Source of the DNA: Octopus vulgaris
Lineage: Eukaryota
Reading direction: 5' to 3'
Assembly: GCA_951406725.2 (NCBI GenBank)
Contig: OX597827.1
Span: 2,852,001-2,916,000, forward strand
Length of the DNA: 64,000 nucleotides
The position numbers were made by a program, and so were the translations under genes. Position 1 is the stretch's first letter, and every line of letters starts with the position of its first letter. Below the pieces are notes generated by a model. The model saw only the letters and a program-made list of their open reading frames with translations, searched no databases and was not told where the DNA came from. This document shows positions 15,296-56,754 of the stretch, piece after piece.

Positions 15296-15480
15296 GGCCG
15301 GCCAGATTAGAGTAGTCTTGAGTGTAACCAGCCGAAAATGCTAAGACAATCTGGAACTCAATTGAGGATAAGAAGCTCTGAATGACCCATCCCTGTTTTT
15401 CCCTGTACCTTTTTGTATCGTTTAACCGTCCGGGTGTTTTGTTGTCGCATGTGACAATCTTGTTCCATTTTTTTTGTTTT

Positions 15481-17448: not shown

Positions 17449-18751
17449 CAGGGTGTGATGGGTGAATTGTCACCATTTTTTATTTTTAATTTCGTGCATG
17501 TACAATGTTTGTTTTTGATTTTGTCAGCAACACAGAATACTAGGGTCAGTTGGGTACCGTCTCTGAGAAAAACAGCACCATGATGTAATTCACTCCACCA
17601 GAAATTTGGAAACGACATGCTGTACTGCTTGGCATTCATACCGGAAGCTCCAATACAAACATCCAGAGTGTTTGGGTGTCAATCTGAGTACAGTGCGGAG
17701 GATTCAGAAAGAGTTGGATGAGTCTAATGGTGATTATGATGGTATTACAGCTCGAAAAGCTCACTCTGACCGTTCTGATAAGAAAAGAATTCTTGCATTT
17801 GTTGGTGAGATCCAGGCCATGATTGACAACGATCCCTCCAAGTCAATCAGGTCCATCACCAGGGACATGGGAGTGTCTGAGCTTCTTATTAGGCAGAAGA
17901 GGTGCATGAAGATATTCAGTATTCCTCATACAAGATGAGAAAGGGCCACTTTTTATCACAAGCCATCAAGGACAAGAGGAAAGACCAGACTACGAAGCTT
18001 TTGGACAAACTCAAGCATCTCCTTCAACCGAACATGCTTTGGTTTTTCTCAGACGAGAAAACTTTCTGCCAGGATCAGATGTTGAGCACACCGAACTACC
18101 GTTGGCTTGCCGTTTCCCCAAAACATGTACTGAGAATGATAAAAAGCAAACATCCAGTCAACATCATGGTGTTTGGAGTGAACACTAATGATGGTGACGT
18201 TATGCCTCTAATCATCTTCCTACACGGCTTCACACTCAGCACAGTGACTGACATCAAGTACCTGGAAGAGATGGTGCTGCTCTGGGTCAAGAGGCTAGCC
18301 ACTGGAAAACCCTATGTCTGGCAACAAGACTCTGCACCATGCCACACAAGAAGGAGAACCTAGTCATGGCTGTCAAACAATTTCTGTGACCACATCACCC
18401 CTAACATCTGGCCACCTAACTCCCCAGACTGCCACCCCCTTGATTATTATGTGTGGGGTGCAGTTGAGCGAGAGACCAACAAAACTCCTTGTAACACCAA
18501 AGATGAACTGAAGGCAAGGATTATGGCAGCATTCACCAACTTAAACAAGGAGAACATCCAGAAGAGTTGCAGGAAATTACAAAGTCGTCTGGAGGCCATG
18601 GTTGAAGCCAATGGTGATTTTATTGAATAAATTTACTCATAATTATTTCTGGATATTTTTATGTAATTTTGATAAATATATTTGTTGAAAGGAGATGTCA
18701 GTGTTATTTTTATTTTTGTGTAATTCATATGACAGTTTATTCTCTGCAACT

Positions 18752-18753
<2 letters not shown>
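17449..18753 (+). mobile_element. Tc1/mariner superfamily maT (DD37D) transposon, near full length
   Basis: TA|CAGGGTG left end, degenerate right TIR (tgacagtttattctctgcaacttg), and an internal transposase pseudogene. Confidence 0.9.
17580..18630 (+). pseudogene. DD37D transposase pseudogene (frameshifts, in-frame stops)
   Basis: HTH region (LGVNLSTVRRIQK), WFFSDEK, WQQDSAPCH and WPPNSPDCHPLDYYVWG, with 37 residues between the 2nd and 3rd Asp; stop at 18361; ends VEANGDFIE*. Confidence 0.92.
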
Positions 18754-18816
<63 letters not shown>

Positions 18817-19539
18817 ATGATAATAATATTAGGGAGTATTTTGTCTCTAATTCATATTTTATATATATACACATACATACATACATATATATATATATAG
18901 ATAGATAGATAGATAGATAGATACACATACACATATATATATTTGACTGGGGAAAAGATAGAGAGATACAGAGACAAAGTGAAAGAGCAAAAGGAATCAA
19001 TAACTTCACAAACTTTTTATTCCCATAATGCCAACCATTACCTTCATCACCAGCTTCGTTTCCTCTTCCTCCTCGCCACCACCACCACCACTGCCATCTC
19101 CATCATTGCCACTGCTGCCATCATCACCCAACCCTCGCCACCACAGCTCCCATACAAGTGCTGACATTTGGTTGCCACTGTTTGAAATTACACCATATTC
19201 CTTCTCCCACCATGTCAGTCGAGTGATTAAGTCCTTATAGATCACCATAACCACATCGTCTCTAATCAACGAAACCTCTGTAGGCTAACAGAACCTCATT
19301 GATTCCATTCCTTAAATCTCACAAACTAGATTATTGATTCTGTTCAATAATCAAATGTAAAAATCACTACAGTCCCCTGTAGACTTCTCTCATACCGCTT
19401 CCAGTCATCTCCTGAAACCTTTCTACCATTAACGGTCCTGCTGCTTGATTCCACTCCTTGTCACAACAAAGTTTACCTCCACCTCTATCCCCACGTCTCT
19501 CTCCCCCTCATACACACATACATTTTCTTTCTCTCCTCC

Positions 19540-19800
<261 letters not shown>

Positions 19801-20543
19801 GTATATATATATACCTATCCATCAAACTATATAGTTATTTCCCTGTCCATCTATCGTTCAATGTGTACAACTAATAATTGTATCTCCCTCACTCTGTATA
19901 TGTGTGTGTGTGTATATATACACATACATACAAATATATATACACACACGTATTTATGTGTGTATATATATATATATATCCATCCGTCTAGTCACTTGCA
20001 TTTCCATTTATATGTTTATTCATCTTAACTATCACTATATGCATCTTATGTACTAACCTATCTGTGTACCTGTCTATCTATTTCACACTTCCAATCTACC
20101 TACCTATATATCTATCTATCTATCCATCTACCAATCTACCTATCTCTCTACCTACCCAACTTTCAATCTCACTACCTTACTATCTCCTTATCCCCTATCT
20201 GTCTAACTGCCTATCTATATATCTACCTATCTAGCAATATATATATATGTATATGTATGTATCCCTCTAACCATCTCACCAGTTATCTAAACTATAAAAC
20301 GTCAAGTATTGGCTGATTCCCAGAGAGTAGCAGTAACGTCTTCTTTGTCTGTTGATCACGTTAAAGATTTTACTGACAAATTTCTCCCATTGACCGAGAA
20401 TATTTAACTCTTTAAAAAGATCTGACCTGCAGGCAAGCCAAAAGCTAACAAGCGTCTTCCTTCGCTTTTGACCAAAGCATTTAACCCTTTTAGAATAGAC
20501 AATCTATATAACTATTGACTGATTAGAGGACACACGCCAACTC

Positions 20544-20582
<39 letters not shown>

Positions 20583-20886
20583 GCACACTCGTACACATAC
20601 ACTCTCTCTCTTTCTCACACATACATACACATACTTATATACACACCAGTCAAACATACATATAAACATAATCTTTCTTACCTCATAACACATTGATTAT
20701 ATAGACATACAAATGTACATACACACATCTACAATCACACAAAAAGGCGTACATTATCTTAACACATTGAATAAATACATACATATACATGGATATATAA
20801 AAACACACACAAATATCCATATACAGACACACATATATGCATACCCAATTTTTTCCTCTCAGCTCATATATATACATACATATATA

Positions 20887-20920
<34 letters not shown>

Positions 20921-20984
20921 TGCACATAGACATTCACATATACATACCTATAATTGCACATACGCAATTTTCTCACTCAAACTT

Positions 20985-21870
20985 GACTAGACTAGACACC
21001 CTTCACATATATATGCATACACAGACAACCATGCACTTATATACACATAGACAGCCTTACATTTATACACACATATAGAGACAGCTTAAATATGCTTATG
21101 TAGACAGCCATACACCTACATACAATTATGTAGACGGCTGCATACTTTACACATATAAAGAAAGCCATACACTTACATACATATATGCAGACAGTTATAC
21201 ACTTACAAACACATAGATATAACCATGCGCTTATATACACATAAGCAGATAGCTACACACTTACATTCAGTTGTGTGTAGATAGTCACATATGCATATAT
21301 TGTCAGTCATACACTCACATACACTTATACAGACAACCATACACTAATATACACATAAGTAGACAGCTATACACTCACACATATACAGACATCCATATAC
21401 TTACATAGATACAGACAGCTACACTGTTACATACACTTATGTAGACAGCCATACACTTATATACACATATGCAGAAACCCATGCACTTATGTACGCATAT
21501 AAAGACAGCCATACACTTACATACATATACAGAGACAGCCATACACTTAATGCATGTATACAAGCAGTCATACAATTAAAATACATACATGTATAGATAT
21601 ACAGTTACAAACACATATGCAGATATTCACTTATGTGCACATATACAGACAGATATACACTTACTCATATACAGATACTCTTACTCATTACACTTACATA
21701 CATACACTTATACAAGCAGTCACACACTTAAAATACAGACATGCAGTTACATCCACATATATAGATATTCACATATGTACACATATACATACAGTCATAC
21801 ACTTAGACATTTACAGACAGTCTTATACTGACATACACTTACGAAAATAGCCTTGCACTGACATACACTT
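20985..21870. repeat. Degenerate minisatellite of about 30 bp
   Basis: Recurring unit of the form agacagccatacacttacatacacatat. Confidence 0.8.
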
Positions 21871-21904
21871 ATACAAATATGTATCTTTCTTTCTTTTTCT
21901 TTTT

Positions 21905-22256
21905 ATTTGTAACTTGACCCTAGGACTTATTCTTTGTAAGCCCAGTACTTATTCTATCGGTCTCTTTTTGCCGAACCGCTAAATGACGGGGACATAAACA
22001 CACCAGCATCGGTAGTCAAGCAATGCTAGGGGGACAAATACAGACACACAAACATATACACACACATACATATATACATATATACATATATACGAGAGGC
22101 TTCTTTCAGTTTCCGTCTACCAAATCCACTCACAAGGCTTTGGTTGGTCTGAGGCTATAGTAGAAGACACTTGCCCAAGGTGCGACGCAGTAGGACTGAA
22201 CCAGGAACCATGTGGTTGGTAAGCAAGCTACTTACCACACAGCCACTCCTGCACCT
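21905..22256 (-). mobile_element. SINE family A
   Basis: Reverse complement of the family A head, microsatellite and most of the tail. Confidence 0.9.
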
Positions 22257-22490
22257 ATGTATGCGCAATGCTACCTCTTAATGCAATTAATGTATACAGA
22301 CACAGGTACATAATTACCTCACAATACTCATTCACACCTATACAAATGCACACTTACATATATGCATGCACACAAACACGCACACATGCATGCACACATA
22401 TACACACACATTCATTTACTCTCTCTGCTGTTCATCATACACTATATACACATAGATAAGATACACATGCATATTATTTAAATATGTATG

Positions 22491-22522
<32 letters not shown>

Positions 22523-23364
22523 CTAATGCAAATAAATACATAAAGTCTCACACACACACACAAGCATATACATACATATTTGCATACACATACACAAACA
22601 CAGTAGGCTCTGAATATAAAGTGAGTCTACAAATACATATACACATACATAGAATCTCACACAAGTTTACCAAGTGTGGTTACCCACCTCCCACCACCAC
22701 TTCAAAGGAGTAGCCAAACACTTTCCTTTCTTTCTTTCTTTCCTTCTTTCTTTCCTTCTTTCTTTCCTTCTTTCTTTCTTTCTTTCCTTCTCTTCCAGAC
22801 TGTCTGAATACCTGGTTTTCTGTCTTCAATTCATACATATACATACATACAAACATACATGCATACATATATACATACAAATATACACACACACAAACGT
22901 ACATACATAAATACACATACAGTAATTCTCACAGTTCTAAACATGCACACACACACAAACACACACATATATATATATACACACACACTTTTAATTGTCA
23001 TGTATGCTTCACAATTACTTAACAGATATTCACATGCACAAGTACCTGCAACACACACAAGCACATGCATGTAGCCCACATGCACAAGCAAACATGCATA
23101 GCAAGACCTACATAATTACAGACACATTTTCGACACTCACCCCACTAACCACTGGGCTTTGACAATCACTTTTCTTTTCACATTCTTTCTTCCTTTCTCT
23201 CTTTTTCACCCTCTTTCTGTCTGTCTGTCTGTCTCTCTCTTTCTCTCTCTATGTCTCTCTCTCTCTCTCTCTCTTTCATACACACACAAATACTTACACA
23301 CATGAGATCACTCATTATACAATCCGATGTTCTCTCCTTTTCAAAAGAAAAATTCTATCATTTA

Positions 23365-23417
<53 letters not shown>

Positions 23418-23699
23418 CTCTTTCTCTTCTTATGCATCTATCCTGCTTTACATATACACACACAGATACTCATGCTCACACACACGTGCACACACACACA
23501 CACACACACATACAGACATGATGACACAATAACACTTGCTCAAATAATAAAATTATTTACTTCCCAATTCACCTTTCTCACAAAAGATAAGACATACCTA
23601 CATCTCTGTCTTCCTCTCTCTCTCTCTCCTTATTCCCCCATCCTTCTCTCTGTCTGTCTCTCTATTTGTCTAGCAATCTCTCTTTCTCTCACCAGCTAC

Positions 23700-23715
23700 C
23701 ACTATCTATCTAACT

Positions 23716-23765
<50 letters not shown>

Positions 23766-23773
23766 GTCTAACT

Positions 23774-23842
<69 letters not shown>

Positions 23843-23859
23843 AATCTATCAATCTATCA

Positions 23860-23944
<85 letters not shown>

Positions 23945-23945
23945 C

Positions 23946-23999
<54 letters not shown>

Positions 24000-24006
24000 C
24001 TCTCTC

Positions 24007-24065
<59 letters not shown>

Positions 24066-24108
24066 CTATCTATCTATCTATCTGTCTGTCTATCTATCTA
24101 TTTTTATT

Positions 24109-24163
<55 letters not shown>

Positions 24164-24170
24164 ATCTGTC
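23700..24170. repeat. (TATC)n compound microsatellite
   Basis: Seen directly. Confidence 0.95.
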
Positions 24171-24222
24171 AATCATTCAGTTTATCTCGATTTATCTATC
24201 TTTGTATCTGGTTTTCCCGCTC

Positions 24223-24258
<36 letters not shown>

Positions 24259-24511
24259 ACATGTATGCAAATAAACACAAAAAAATAAAACAATCCCTGT
24301 GTCACTCACTTTCTCATAAACATATGCATACACACAAAAACAAACACATACATATATACACAAACACAGATTTGTAAGAATATATATACATACACCAAGC
24401 TATATATGCACATATACACAGTTACATGCAATTACACATATATACACAAAACAGATTCATATATTATCATAAGCATGCAATCCCATACAACAAACATGCA
24501 CACACTAACAT

Positions 24512-24557
<46 letters not shown>

Positions 24558-24957
24558 AGCATACATGCATACCTGCATACATACAGGCAAATAATTGCAA
24601 TCACAATAGGTTATACATACACATACATACAAACACACTGATATACAAATATAAATGCATACATTCATATACTTACAATCACAAAGGTATGAATACATAC
24701 ACACAAACACTTTGATACACAAACATGCATGCATACTTACATATATACATACAAACATACATACATACAAATATTTGCAGTCACATCACAAACTAATGCA
24801 AACGTTGTCACATCCACACAACCACATTGATATACAAGCATACATGTATATCTGCATACATACAATTATTTGCACAAAAACATGTATACACTCAGTCCCC
24901 ACCGGACACACGGACACACACACACACTACATGACTAACACATACAGAGATGTATAT

Positions 24958-25108
24958 AATATCACCAACACACACACACAATATCACCAATAAACACATA
25001 AACACACACACACACACACACACACAATATCACCAATAAACACACACACACACACACACACACAATATCACCAATAAACAGACACACACACAATATCATC
25101 AATAAACG

Positions 25109-25142
<34 letters not shown>

Positions 25143-25161
25143 CACACACAATATCACCAAT

Positions 25162-25210
<49 letters not shown>
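24958..25210. repeat. Minisatellite aatatcaccaataaa+(CA)n, about 6 units
   Basis: Seen directly. Confidence 0.9.
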
Positions 25211-25215
<5 letters not shown>

Positions 25216-25345
25216 TCTTGGTCCTCATGGATTTCGGCAGAAGACCATCAGCTGACTGATTAAGTTTGCTCTTAGAAACCTGTTTAATGATGCAAACAGA
25301 AGCAATCTCCAGTTCTTTATTATCTCTTCTTAGTTGCACCCCTTT

Positions 25346-25361
25346 CCAATAGATGGCAGCA
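25346..25361 (+). promoter_or_regulatory. Candidate CTCF-type motif
   Basis: ccaatagatggcagca resembles the CCAsyAGrkGGCrs consensus and lies in a unique island between microsatellites. Confidence 0.35.
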
Positions 25362-25464
25362 CTATTTGAGCAATAATAATAATGGACACTTCCCTCTCCA
25401 ATACTGCAAATACAAAAACTGTTCTTTTATTTTATTTGTGTGTGTATGCATGTGTTTGTGTGTG

Positions 25465-25514
<50 letters not shown>

Positions 25515-25527
25515 TACATATATATAT

Positions 25528-25622
<95 letters not shown>

Positions 25623-25676
25623 ATATATATATATATATATACATACATACATATACACACACACACATATATATAT

Positions 25677-25737
<61 letters not shown>

Positions 25738-26099
25738 GAATGGATAGTCCGTGCTTTGTGAATGTGCACATGTGTGTGTACAGACACACACACACACACA
25801 TAAATTGAATGGACAGTTTATATGAGTGTGTGTGTGTCTAACATATATGTGTATGTGTGTATCAATGGTTGTGTGTGTGTGTATATAGACATGTGTGAGC
25901 ATATATACATGTGGTTTGTGAATGTGTTTTCTTTCTTCTCTATACACCACCATCAACTTTATTCTTATATATTTTACTTTTATATTATTTTAGTATTTGT
26001 TGTTTATATTTTTTTTATCGTTTTTCTCCTTTTACCTCACCTACTTATTTCTTCTTATAATTTCTTCTCCTCCTTCTTCCCTCCTCTTTTCCACACTCT

Positions 26100-26370
26100 T
26101 TTCCTCCATCTTCTTCTTCTTTCTTCTTCTTCTTCTTCTTCTTCTTCTTCTTCTCCTCAGTCTTTTTTTCTTTTCTTCTTTTTCTTCATTTTCTTTCTTC
26201 TCCTTCAGTCTTCTTTTTCTTCTTCTTCTTCCTCTTCTTCTTCTTCTTTTTTTCTTCTTCTTCTTCTTCTTCTTCTTCGTTTTCTTCTCCAGTCTTCTTC
26301 TTCTTCTTCTCTTCTTCTTCTTCTTTCCTTTCTTTCTTTCTTCTCCTCCAGTCTTCTTTCTTTCATTCAT
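26100..26370. repeat. (TTC)n polypyrimidine microsatellite
   Basis: Seen directly. Confidence 0.95.
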
Positions 26371-26650
26371 TCATTCATTCTTTACCCCTAATTCTTGCTT
26401 TCTTCAATTTAGCAGAGGTAATAGTGTAGATATTGTTGATAGTTTTGGTGATGGTCATGGTGATGTTATTTGAGATAACCTCTCTTTAAATAGTTGTTGT
26501 AGTTGTTGTTCTTCTTCACCTTCATCTCTTGCTTTCTTCAATCAAACACTTCTTTATCTTGTTGGTGTTTTTGTTGTTGATCTTTTTCTTCCTCTCTTTT
26601 TTCCTTTATTATCCTTTTTAACACCAACTCCTATCATTTAGGCCAGTATG

Positions 26651-26715
<65 letters not shown>

Positions 26716-26734
26716 ATCAACCAGCAGATAAATG

Positions 26735-27300
26735 TCATCACTGCAACCACCACCACCACAACCATTACCATCACCACAATGACTACCGTTGTGATATCAT
26801 CCCACCCTATACACATCCCACCACCAGTACAATCACTACCATTACTAATACCACCACTGCCACCACCCACACCTGCTACTGTCATAAATACCACAACCAT
26901 GACCACCACTACTATCACCAGTACCACCACAATAACCATCATCACTATCACCACAATTCACACTACTGTCTTTACTACCACTAGTACTACAGTCACCAAT
27001 ACCCCAACCACTTTCACCAATACCATCACCACAGCCATTACCTCCACTACCACCACAACCAACCTATTAATACCATTCCTGTCAACACATCCACCACCAC
27101 CACAGTAATACTGTCCACCCCAGCTCCCACTTTCATCACTACAACCTCTACAACTATTGACCCACATTCATCAATACCAATGCCACCACCACCACCACCA
27201 TCAATAGCTATTCCACTCTTTTATCCCACTGTCCATCTCTTTCCTGCTCACACACATACATCCATCTCCCGCTATGTCTGTCCACCACCACCTCCACCAT
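26735..27300. repeat. Degenerate (ACC)/(ACT) triplet low-complexity tract
   Basis: Seen directly; the source of the poly-Thr/poly-His pseudo-ORFs. Confidence 0.9.
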
Positions 27301-27823
27301 TACACTCCACCACAAATTTTCTGTTCTTCCTGGTAAAGTAAGATGCAACCGTAAATATTTATCCTTGTGGAACAATCAGTTGCTAGGTTTTCCCCCACTG
27401 TTAACTTTTTTAATACAGAGACAAACAGAATTGTTAGGTTTTTTTTCTCCTTATGGTTAACATCTTCAACACACAGAACAACCAACAGACAGACAGACAG
27501 AGTTGTTAAGTTTTCCCCTACAGTTAACATCTTCAGTATATGAGAGAGAGAGGGGGGAGAGAAGAAGAGAGAGACAGACAAACAGACAGAGTGAAAGAGA
27601 AGACATATTTGAGTCACACATTTTATTACTGATCAATGTGGTTGTTGTTGTTGTGATTGTGATTGTGGTGTCTGTTGTGTAAGTAGTCGTCATAGTTGTC
27701 GATCAGTCATGGTGTTCCTGTAATGGACAAGATGGTTCTATTGATGTTTTGCGGCTGTTAGCCCCCAGATCAATCTCGATCAAGCAGACTTATGACTCTT
27801 GCTATTCCATTTATGACCATGTA

Positions 27824-28075
27824 GGCGGTGTGTGGCTGAGTGGTTAGGGTGTTTAGACTCATGATTGCAAGAGTGTGAGTTTGATTCCTGCATTGGATGA
27901 TGTGTTGTGTTCTTGAACAAAACATTTTATTTCACATTGCTCCACTCCACTCAGTTGACAAAAATGACTAACCCTACAATAGACTAGCGTCCTATCCTGG
28001 TGAGAAATAGATATGACATGAAACCACGAAACTGGCCCTTATGACTTGACATGATGTGAGAAGGCAACTTAACTT
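27824..28075 (+). mobile_element. tRNA-derived SINE family D
   Basis: A-box tggctgagtgg, B-box gagtttgattcc, gtgttcttgaacaaaaca, and a V-domain-like ccctacaatagactagcgtcctatcc; second copy at 47915. Confidence 0.7.
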
Positions 28076-41503: not shown

Positions 41504-41609
41504 CATATATATACATAAATATATGAGGAAAAGTTTCAGTTATCATATATATATAATACATACATATATGTACATACCGACATATATATGTATATATACA
41601 TGCATATAT

Positions 41610-41890
41610 GGGTACAGGACATAAAAAAAACGTAGACAAAATGAGAAATGAGAACATAAAAAACAAAAACAGAAAATGAACTTTTTACGGACAACGAAAG
41701 AAACAGAGAAATGATACAGGCAACATAAAGAACATTCCCTTCATCAGTTGTCCCCTGTTTTATCTACTCCGTATTTCGAAGGTAAGGACAAGACACAACT
41801 TTGTTAAAATAGTCCTTCCTGCAAAGCAAATTAAATAAAATTTGGGATTTTTTGCGGAGGGTTAAAGTGGTAACAAAAACAGGACAGTAC
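41610..41890 (-). mobile_element. Penelope-like terminal fragment with a re-ordered hammerhead-like motif
   Basis: TA-rich flanks; minus strand has GTC, GAAA and CTGATGA with complementary arms and a T-rich tail like the 15296 insert. Confidence 0.55.
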
Positions 41891-41999
41891 ATATAAGCAT
41901 GTATTTATATATTATTTATATTATTATATGATCGAAAACCATGCATCCATTTCCAAGTATATATATGCATGTGCACACTTACCAAATTCACTTACAAGA

Positions 42000-54909: not shown

Positions 54910-56754
54910 TACATGTGTGTGTGTGTTATGTGCTTGTTTGTTGGAACAAGGAATCTAAATCACAAGAATGGAAACAGATTTATAAAGCTGTACATTAAAT
55001 CAACAATAAAGATATATACACATACATATATATTTATACACATACATAAATATTTATCTATTTACCCATTAATGTATCTCCCTATATACCCACTCATACA
55101 CACACACACACTCACATTTATATCATCATCATCATCATCATTGATTGAATGTTCACTTTTCTATTCTCGCATGAGTCAGATGAAATTCCATTACTTCTGT
55201 GGCTCAGTGCTCTTTCTGATGCCAACCCTCGTTGGTTTCCAAGTGAGTTAAAATATCCCAAAATCTTACATAGATAAACAGCACACACACGCACACACAC
55301 ACACACATGTTCATTGAGTGCACAGGACTTAAAGTTTCCTTTGATTTTATTCCAGCCAGCTGATGCGATAGCAATGAGAATAATCAGCTGAAGTACTCGG
55401 GCAGTTGCTTAAACAATTCCAAAACTTATCACCATGCTTTTCCAGAATCCAATGATCTGTTTTATTTTTGCTACTTTCGATGACTGGAATAAGGATTTGA
55501 ACTCAGTATGTCCATATCCAAAACAGATCTTTAATCTTTTACTTATTTCAGTCATTTTACTGCAGCCATGCTTGGGCACAGCCTTGAAGAGTTTAATCCA
55601 GTACCAAACAAATTTACTCCAGTACTTTTTCATTTTTAAAGCCTGGGGCTTATTGTATCAGTCTCTCTTGCCGAACTGCTACGTTATGGATATGTAAACA
55701 AACACACACTGATTGTCAAGCTGTGGTAGATACATATGCATGTGCACACATATATACATACAAACATGCACACACATATCTTTTATCTTTTACTTCTTGG
55801 AAACAATACGTTGCTCTGAAGTTGAGAGCAATGCCCATGTGTTAGAAAGATCATATGATCTCCTCCATCTTTGCCAATGGGAGTGCTACATGTCTCTCCT
55901 TTTTTGCAACACATGTATATATACATACACACACTCACATGGAGAATGAGTTTCTTTCAGTTTTGTTCTACCAAATCTACTCACAAAGCCTTGATTGGAC
56001 CAAGGCTGTTACAGAATACACTTGCCCAAAGTGTCATGAGATGGGACTGCTGACCAAAGCCTCGTGAGTAGATTTGGTAGATGGAAACTGTAAGAAGACC
56101 TTTATATGTATGTATGCTAATATATATATAAACAGGATCTCCTGAAATTATGGCAACTGAAGTTTCGCTGTGAAGCAAGCTTCTTCACAACTCCAGCCGC
56201 CACAATTCATCTTATTCAGCATGCTAACATTCAGCATACTAATCTACCATACTGGACTAGCACTTTATTTACCAAGCCCTAAAGGATGAAAGTCACAAGG
56301 GAGTAGATGAAAGTACATCATTGATAAGGCTGCAGGCTTTGACCAAAGTACTATGACAAACCAATTGATTGGTTGATCAATCAATGGATCACATCTTAAG
56401 TTAACAATTAAATTGATAATAAGAAATGAGATCTGACTGGTGCAAATCTTTTAATTCTGTGCATCTGTTTCAAGACACACTTTTCTATTTAAACAGATGT
56501 TTGCTTCCCAATCACATGGTCTAAGGTTCAGTCCCACTGTATGACAACTTAGATAGGTGTTTTCTAATTTTTGATATAGCCTCAGGCTGACGAAAGCAAT
56601 TTGGGTGGATTTAAGTTGACAGAAACCAAAAGAAGCCTATTGTGTGCATGTGTGAAGGTATACTATATAGTATTTATGTGTGTGTGTGTGTGGTTGCCCA
56701 TGCTAGCATGGAAAACGGACGCTAAACGATGATGATGATGATGATATATATATA

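Follow-up and report, generated by a model that had tools for sequence, protein, structure and literature searches.

A hammerhead-type motif with an opened core in the octopus window

The window analysed here is a whole stretch of 64,000 nucleotides of Octopus vulgaris DNA (contig OX597827.1), and its minus strand carries, from 41861 to 41737, a worn copy of a hammerhead-type RNA motif that is likely self-cleaving. According to Eckert 2023 (PMC10085705), hammerheads can be described as three blocks: C (CUGAnGA with its stem I and stem II strands), G and S. In these terms the locus is organised as listed below, the blocks having been located from the letters and both arms of helix P with a descriptor.

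41585 to 41889, minus strand: 5'-truncated copy of the non-coding repeat family A1, with a TA-rich end (89% identity to another copy)
41887 to 41959, plus strand: short inverted piece of family A1 that forms the 5' end of the insert and resembles inversions of Penelope-like elements (PLEs)
41858 to 41861, minus strand: 5' arm of helix X (ccct), pairing with the four bases immediately after A9
41819 to 41857, minus strand: hairpin Y, 7 bp with a 25-nt loop, adjoining helix X and stem II
41814 to 41818, minus strand: 5' strand of stem II (GAAGG), G10.1 first, displaced to the 5' end
41805 to 41812, minus strand: 5' arm of helix P, which equals the stem I-II interaction helix of types SGC and CSG (Eckert 2023, Fig. 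1C legend, PMC10085705)
41785 to 41798, minus strand: block S, with a stem III strand, U16.1 (41793), C17 (41792) and a stem I strand
41769 to 41782, minus strand: block G, with the 3' strand of stem II, GAAA (41777-41774) and a stem III strand
41755 to 41762, minus strand: 3' arm of helix P
41741 to 41754, minus strand: stem I strand and CUGAUGA (41747-41741), that is, block C without its stem II strand
41737 to 41740, minus strand: 3' arm of helix X (aggg), pairing with 41861-41858
15296 to 15471, plus strand: copy 1, of family B1, with the same layout and starting at stem II

The segments that a sequence-only reading had claimed for the minus strand are all in place: GAAGG at 41818-41814, the two arms of P at 41812-41805 and 41762-41755, UC at 41793-41792, the first stem I strand from 41791, CCTTC at 41782-41778, GAAA at 41777-41774, the second stem I strand at 41754-41748 and CTGATGA at 41747-41741. 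The extent that it had given (41741-41818) covers these segments but is too short, since the motif reaches 5' to 41861 through helices X and Y. It had also offered the aggg after CTGATGA as an alternative partner of cctt; no such competition is needed, as aggg pairs with ccct at 41861-41858.

The hammerhead core of the window copy is complete, with 13/13 positions present and all the letters of CUGAnGA, GAAA and UH found, in the order cut site, GAAA, CUGAnGA. The blocks follow each other 5' to 3' as S-G-C, and the chain is opened between A9 and G10.1, stem II's 5' strand being displaced to the 5' end together with the I-II helix, which gives the overall order IIa-P-S-G-P'-Ib-CUGAnGA. By analogy with the ribozymes of Eckert 2023, cleavage is predicted between 41792 and 41791 of the minus strand. 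Mismatches or G-U changes of the CpG type are present in Y (a single A-C mismatch from CpG decay), P, III and I, and every core letter is intact; that this particular copy is itself still an active ribozyme appears possible, at somewhat below even odds.

Elsewhere in the window, a U6atac snRNA copy, either a gene or a pseudogene, lies at 55801-55912 of the minus strand (Rfam 69.2 bits, above the cut-off), and a strong negative GC skew, from -0.29 to -0.57, extends over 10 kb at 18001-28000.

Two carrier families share the layout

The sequence-only reading had reported a second copy of equivalent layout at 15296-15368, which indeed fits the descriptor with the same order of parts. Its statement that the cores are kept in both copies is correct for the window copy but not for copy 1, in which C3 is changed to U. 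Copy 1 is truncated ahead of X and Y, neither of which is present, and is likely inactive. Its family, B1, has no homology to family A1 outside low-complexity sequence, and both are abundant in the 2.8-Gb genome, with 6120 (A1) and 1912 (B1) first-look candidates, 40 of which were scored per family.

Copies of the carrier repeats are 5'-truncated, end in TA repeats, measure roughly 600-800 nt per unit and occur in partial tandems; no open reading frame (ORF) was found among the long A1 copies listed. The earlier placement of both copies in TA-flanked Penelope-like inserts is supported by the TA-repeat ends, the partial tandems and the inverted 5' pieces. In 5/30 A1 copies (L285, L303-L306), an inverted copy of the element's own 3' part stands at the head, with the junction inside the motif.

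The layout is enriched over control sequences

The descriptor was built from the two window copies, requires helices I, II, III and P, and was run on 72 stretches of 10 kb (720 kb) that were not selected for the motif, four of which flank the window. At scores of 36, 40, 44 and 48, it gave 10, 8, 6 and 5 matches in the real sequence, compared with 2, 0, 0 and 0 in the reversed sequence and 0/0/0/0, 0/0/0/0 and 3/1/0/0 in three dinucleotide shuffles. This search against shuffled controls, which the sequence-only reading had proposed, came out in its favour at scores of at least 40 (eight real matches versus none in the reversed sequence and none, none and one in the shuffles), where one match (L153) looks spurious and two are tandem copies within one locus. 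The stem II strand was at the 5' end in 51/51 matches of a first descriptor run and in 10/10 of those in the 720 kb. The presence of I, II, III and P in these matches is partly circular, because the descriptor demanded them.

Helices are maintained across eleven sequence groups

Pairing was followed in 11 sequence groups of this genome comprising 140 copies, three of the groups having a single copy, and the layout is kept in all of them despite differing arm sequences. The six helices pair in 0.78-1.00 of cells (0.86-1.00 for helix P) versus slid means of 0.17-0.72. When the arms of 10 lineages were compared, pairing covered 0.93-1.00 of the first four positions with own arms, against 0.41-0.58 after swapping, and G10.1-C11.1 was G-C in every lineage (10/10). 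Stems I, II and III lie in register with the core, 12 fixed letters of which are kept in the majority of 8/8 multi-copy groups. Among the A-type copies, 22 could be aligned; pairing there reaches 96.4% of 521 cells, compared with 38-52% in slid controls. Double-sided changes occur in 13 of 24 pairs, of which stems I, II and III account for 12 and Y for one, whereas X shows none; helix P, where the alignment is shifted by one, is left out of this count. Loss of the pairings between copies had been named as grounds for abandoning the sequence-only reading, and they held in 11 groups with different arms. Helix conservation and descriptor enrichment both support the re-ordered hammerhead-like fold that it had put forward.

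Helices X and Y, absent from that first description, close the break between A9 and G10.1: in the alignments, hairpin Y ends directly before stem II, and helix X joins the bases before Y to those after A9. Both lie outside the descriptor, and together they beat 196-200 of 200 flank shuffles in 8/8 lineages in a search that permitted gaps of only 0-1 nt. In a nested model, X has a pair probability of 0.92 in the family majority, and nested folding favours it in five of seven majorities (0.89-0.99), not in B1 or C. Exchanging the 3' arm of X among A1, B1, B3 and C gave scores of 21-27 versus 24-28 for the real pairs. X is thus the weakest helix, short and purine-rich, and the clear evidence for it is group D, in which its arms are reversed, with the G run first and the C run after A9. 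The motif of group D (L262-L270), with these reversed X arms, is a compact version of 100 nt with a 4-nt Y loop.

A probable link between the carriers and Naiad elements

Naiads have been reported to lack canonical hammerheads; in the available parts of Craig 2021 (PMC8557442), eight half cores are flagged (HHR_half_core), two of them in cephalopod families, and no structure is given for them. In the same source, Naiads are PLEs with an N-terminal endonuclease (EN), CxC and reverse transcriptase (RT). They insert at TA repeats, form partial tandems and carry inverted 5' pieces, three features that are shared by the window family. Unlike Naiads, family A1 showed no ORF with GIY-YIG, CxC and RT in its long copies. 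Family C has them at one locus (L282), where an N-terminal GIY-YIG, CxC, a DK motif, RT and thumb are followed by the motif on the same strand.

The motif lies behind a Naiad RT tail at 15/30 loci. Behind more distant RT tails, it follows at six of 20 loci by BLAST and at one more by core pattern. A 20-letter piece of an octopus Naiad end had 714 matches in the genome, versus 0 for the reversed pattern. We also read by eye 24 published Naiad consensus 3' ends (PMC8557442 File S5), the name of each being deduced from the order of the file. The split layout is visible in 6/24, from two octopus, a squid (with a poor stem II), a coral, a box jellyfish and a hydrozoan (partial) Naiad, and an unsplit CSG motif with the I-II helix appears in 4/24, three from nematodes and one from a spider. 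No motif was visible in the other 14 within the part of each end examined. After the stop codon, the ends of two bivalve and one hemichordate consensi have another conserved G+C-rich stretch with no hammerhead core, which is possibly another structured RNA.

The carriers thus point to the Naiad clade. Since family A1 has no ORF, and no ORF-bearing partner of it was found, its own Naiad link is inferred: A1 is likely moved by a Naiad protein, judging from the common motif layout and insertion habit. A scan of metagenomes with a Naiad RT piece returned no match, and Pfam gave a weak RVT_1 match (E 0.016) for one of three Naiad pieces.

PLEs with a C-terminal EN were considered as carriers and rejected: in neither the 30 GIY-YIG loci nor the 20 longer stretches did the descriptor match the strand of the ORF downstream of it, and the matches at L077/L102, L093 and L101 sit on the strand opposite to the ORF. 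One C-terminal-EN family (L067, L091, L092; G000:C16) has a 781-aa open frame in 16/148 GIY-YIG matches and is therefore probably young; it also has an upstream ORF of about 330 aa, and simple patterns gave no obvious hammerhead near its end.

A decayed, probably self-cleaving ribozyme as the preferred explanation

We propose, with a probability of about 0.78, that the motif is a decayed copy of a likely self-cleaving hammerhead ribozyme of non-circular order, opened at A9/G10.1. It sits close to the 3' end of its carrier, a short non-coding Penelope-like repeat probably mobilised by Naiad proteins. Helices X and Y would stack on each other and hold A9 beside G10.1, so that a normal core would form from four strands, and helix P would tie stem I to stem II, as it does in SGC. 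Cutting of the RNA after C17 would trim tandem or read-through transcripts, and the Naiad RT would copy uncut RNA as well as 3' products into TA repeats. Some reverse-transcribed 3' products would then give copies beginning at or just after the cut. A tandem duplication of an unsplit type-CSG ribozyme, with subsequent loss, may have given rise to the split layout.

The 5' ends of 80 copies (30 A1, 30 B1 and 20 C), taken from the first places listed and chosen by a pattern near the 3' side only, bear on this model. Nine of them start at 0 to +5 from the predicted cut, where about 2 are expected (Poisson p 0.0003; this bin was fixed after seeing the A1 data), and the start coincides with the predicted cut in one copy each of A1 and B1. 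One copy starts at -6 to -1, where about 2 are also expected, and this single start is ambiguous because the TA repeat mimics the UA before the cut. Altogether, pooled 5' ends are 2.5 times denser downstream than upstream of the predicted cut (p 0.003). Family A1 drives this excess, with 15 ends per 865 at-risk positions downstream versus 2/1393 upstream; B1 is weaker (5/960 versus 5/1987), and C goes in the opposite direction (2/460 versus 10/1070), several of its upstream ends looking by eye like subfamily divergence. Raw RNA reads of a related organism on two A1 copies were about 4- to 5-fold deeper 3' of the cut, the contig controls being too uneven; 80-87% of these reads continue into unlike sequence, many from inverted junctions, and no pile of starts was seen at the cut.

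These ends could also be explained if the fold is real and catalysis was lost, the motif being a hammerhead descendant that the Naiad RT uses today as a signal for binding or packaging, with stalls of this enzyme at the helices near the cut. We regard this as unlikely. Stalling would fit the many A1 ends at +9 to +35, which overlie the 3' arms of II, III, P and I, and in the available parts of PMC11167929 the hammerhead of the Poseidon PLE was dispensable for insertion in vitro and needed protein for cleavage. However, the ends at 0 to +5 fall on a 5' arm with just that one end at -6 to -1, and the majorities of the multi-copy groups retain the 12 fixed core letters, which would be superfluous if the motif were bound and nothing more.

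Far less probable is an ordinary SGC, CSG or GCS hammerhead whose block C becomes whole again through back-splicing, circularisation or the pairing of tandem units, or which uses the bases after CUGAnGA as stem II. The window copy does have a pyrimidine tract and CAG immediately before stem II, and units are present in partial tandems. Nevertheless, this CAG results from CpG decay, with CGG in 13/32 A1, 9/11 A2, 12/12 A3 and 9/12 E copies, and GT is absent from the commonest dinucleotides after A9; on these two observations, splice or back-splice rejoining was rejected. Tandem units repeat the same flanks, so that A9 is not joined to G10.1 and block C is not rejoined. Set to true SGC, in which stem II comes after CUGAnGA, the descriptor had 0 matches in 720 kb, and aggg as stem II was rejected on this result.

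Chance pairing within an AT-rich repeat, to which nested-fold z-scores of -2.25 (window copy) and +0.65 (copy 1) and the lack of an Rfam hammerhead among 150 of 174 window matches listed and in six family loci could be credited, is highly improbable, because neither Rfam models nor nested folding can represent the crossing order, so that no such Rfam match is expected, and because the descriptor, slid-arm and swapped-arm controls, the A-type double changes and the X/Y flank shuffles all stand against it.

Beyond the decayed ribozyme itself, we lean towards a wider proposal: a natural hammerhead with a core entered by a four-way junction at A9/G10.1, a layout beyond the six printed permutations, would serve cephalopod and cnidarian Naiads as their working ribozyme, the unsplit CSG form would do so in nematodes and spiders, and cleavage would set the 5' end of many insertions in vivo. 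If true, this adds to the hammerheads a layout left out of the published permutation scheme by that scheme's own assumption, moves non-circular permutations from environmental sequence into animal genomes, with a rough copy number here of tens of thousands (20 places in 720 kb, scaled to 2.8 Gb), and explains why Naiads seemed to be without hammerheads. The role of PLE hammerheads in the transposition cycle would become testable, and the series from CSG to the split layout would offer a natural route for the origin of permuted ribozymes.

Relation to known hammerheads

Types I, II and III have the cyclic order C-G-S around a three-way junction, which the window motif does not have. A viroid hammerhead reportedly tolerates one additional base at A9/G10.1. 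Insertions into the core are described at other places, and none at A9/G10.1, in the available text of Perreault 2011 (PMC3088659). Type I hammerheads of PLE pLTRs and of non-LTR retrozymes likewise lie near the 3' end of PLEs or of their non-coding derivatives (bioRxiv 10.64898/2026.07.22.740005; PMC11167929), but, in the accessible parts of these sources, they are circular permutations with a three-way junction, unlike the window motif.

The closest relatives are in Eckert 2023 (PMC10085705), where, as far as the available text goes, SGC hammerheads come from metatranscriptomes, and the genomes of known organisms gave nothing beyond one GCS candidate; its supplement contains neither Octopus nor Naiad, Mollusc or Metazoa as a word. 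The SGC block order cleaves in vitro at the analogous site. With type SGC (HRIMA-1 and variants), the window motif shares the S-G-C order, the core letters, a short linker leading from stem I into stem II, and a helix between the strand before Ib and the strand after IIa that joins the free sides of stems I and II. Unlike in type SGC, its block C is interrupted at A9/G10.1, its 5' end carries IIa along with the I-II helix, and X and Y are added. Type CSG, represented there by two metagenomic sequences, has the same cyclic order, and the window layout corresponds to CSG circularly permuted at A9/G10.1; its block C is whole, unlike that of the window motif. That paper assumes that blocks (CUGAnGA with its stems) are uninterruptible, on which assumption the opened core may be slow or dead.

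The sequence-only reading had found the topology unfamiliar among described hammerheads. This is true of the opening of the CUGAnGA-stem II block with two closing helices, a split layout of which we found no published description in the literature consulted (text rather than figures, mostly outside subscription papers), but not of the block order, which is that of type SGC (PMC10085705). The window motif therefore lies outside types I-III and departs from type SGC in one defining feature, the uninterrupted block C; the S-G-C order is already in print, and the new part is the opened CUGAnGA-stem II block closed by two extra helices.
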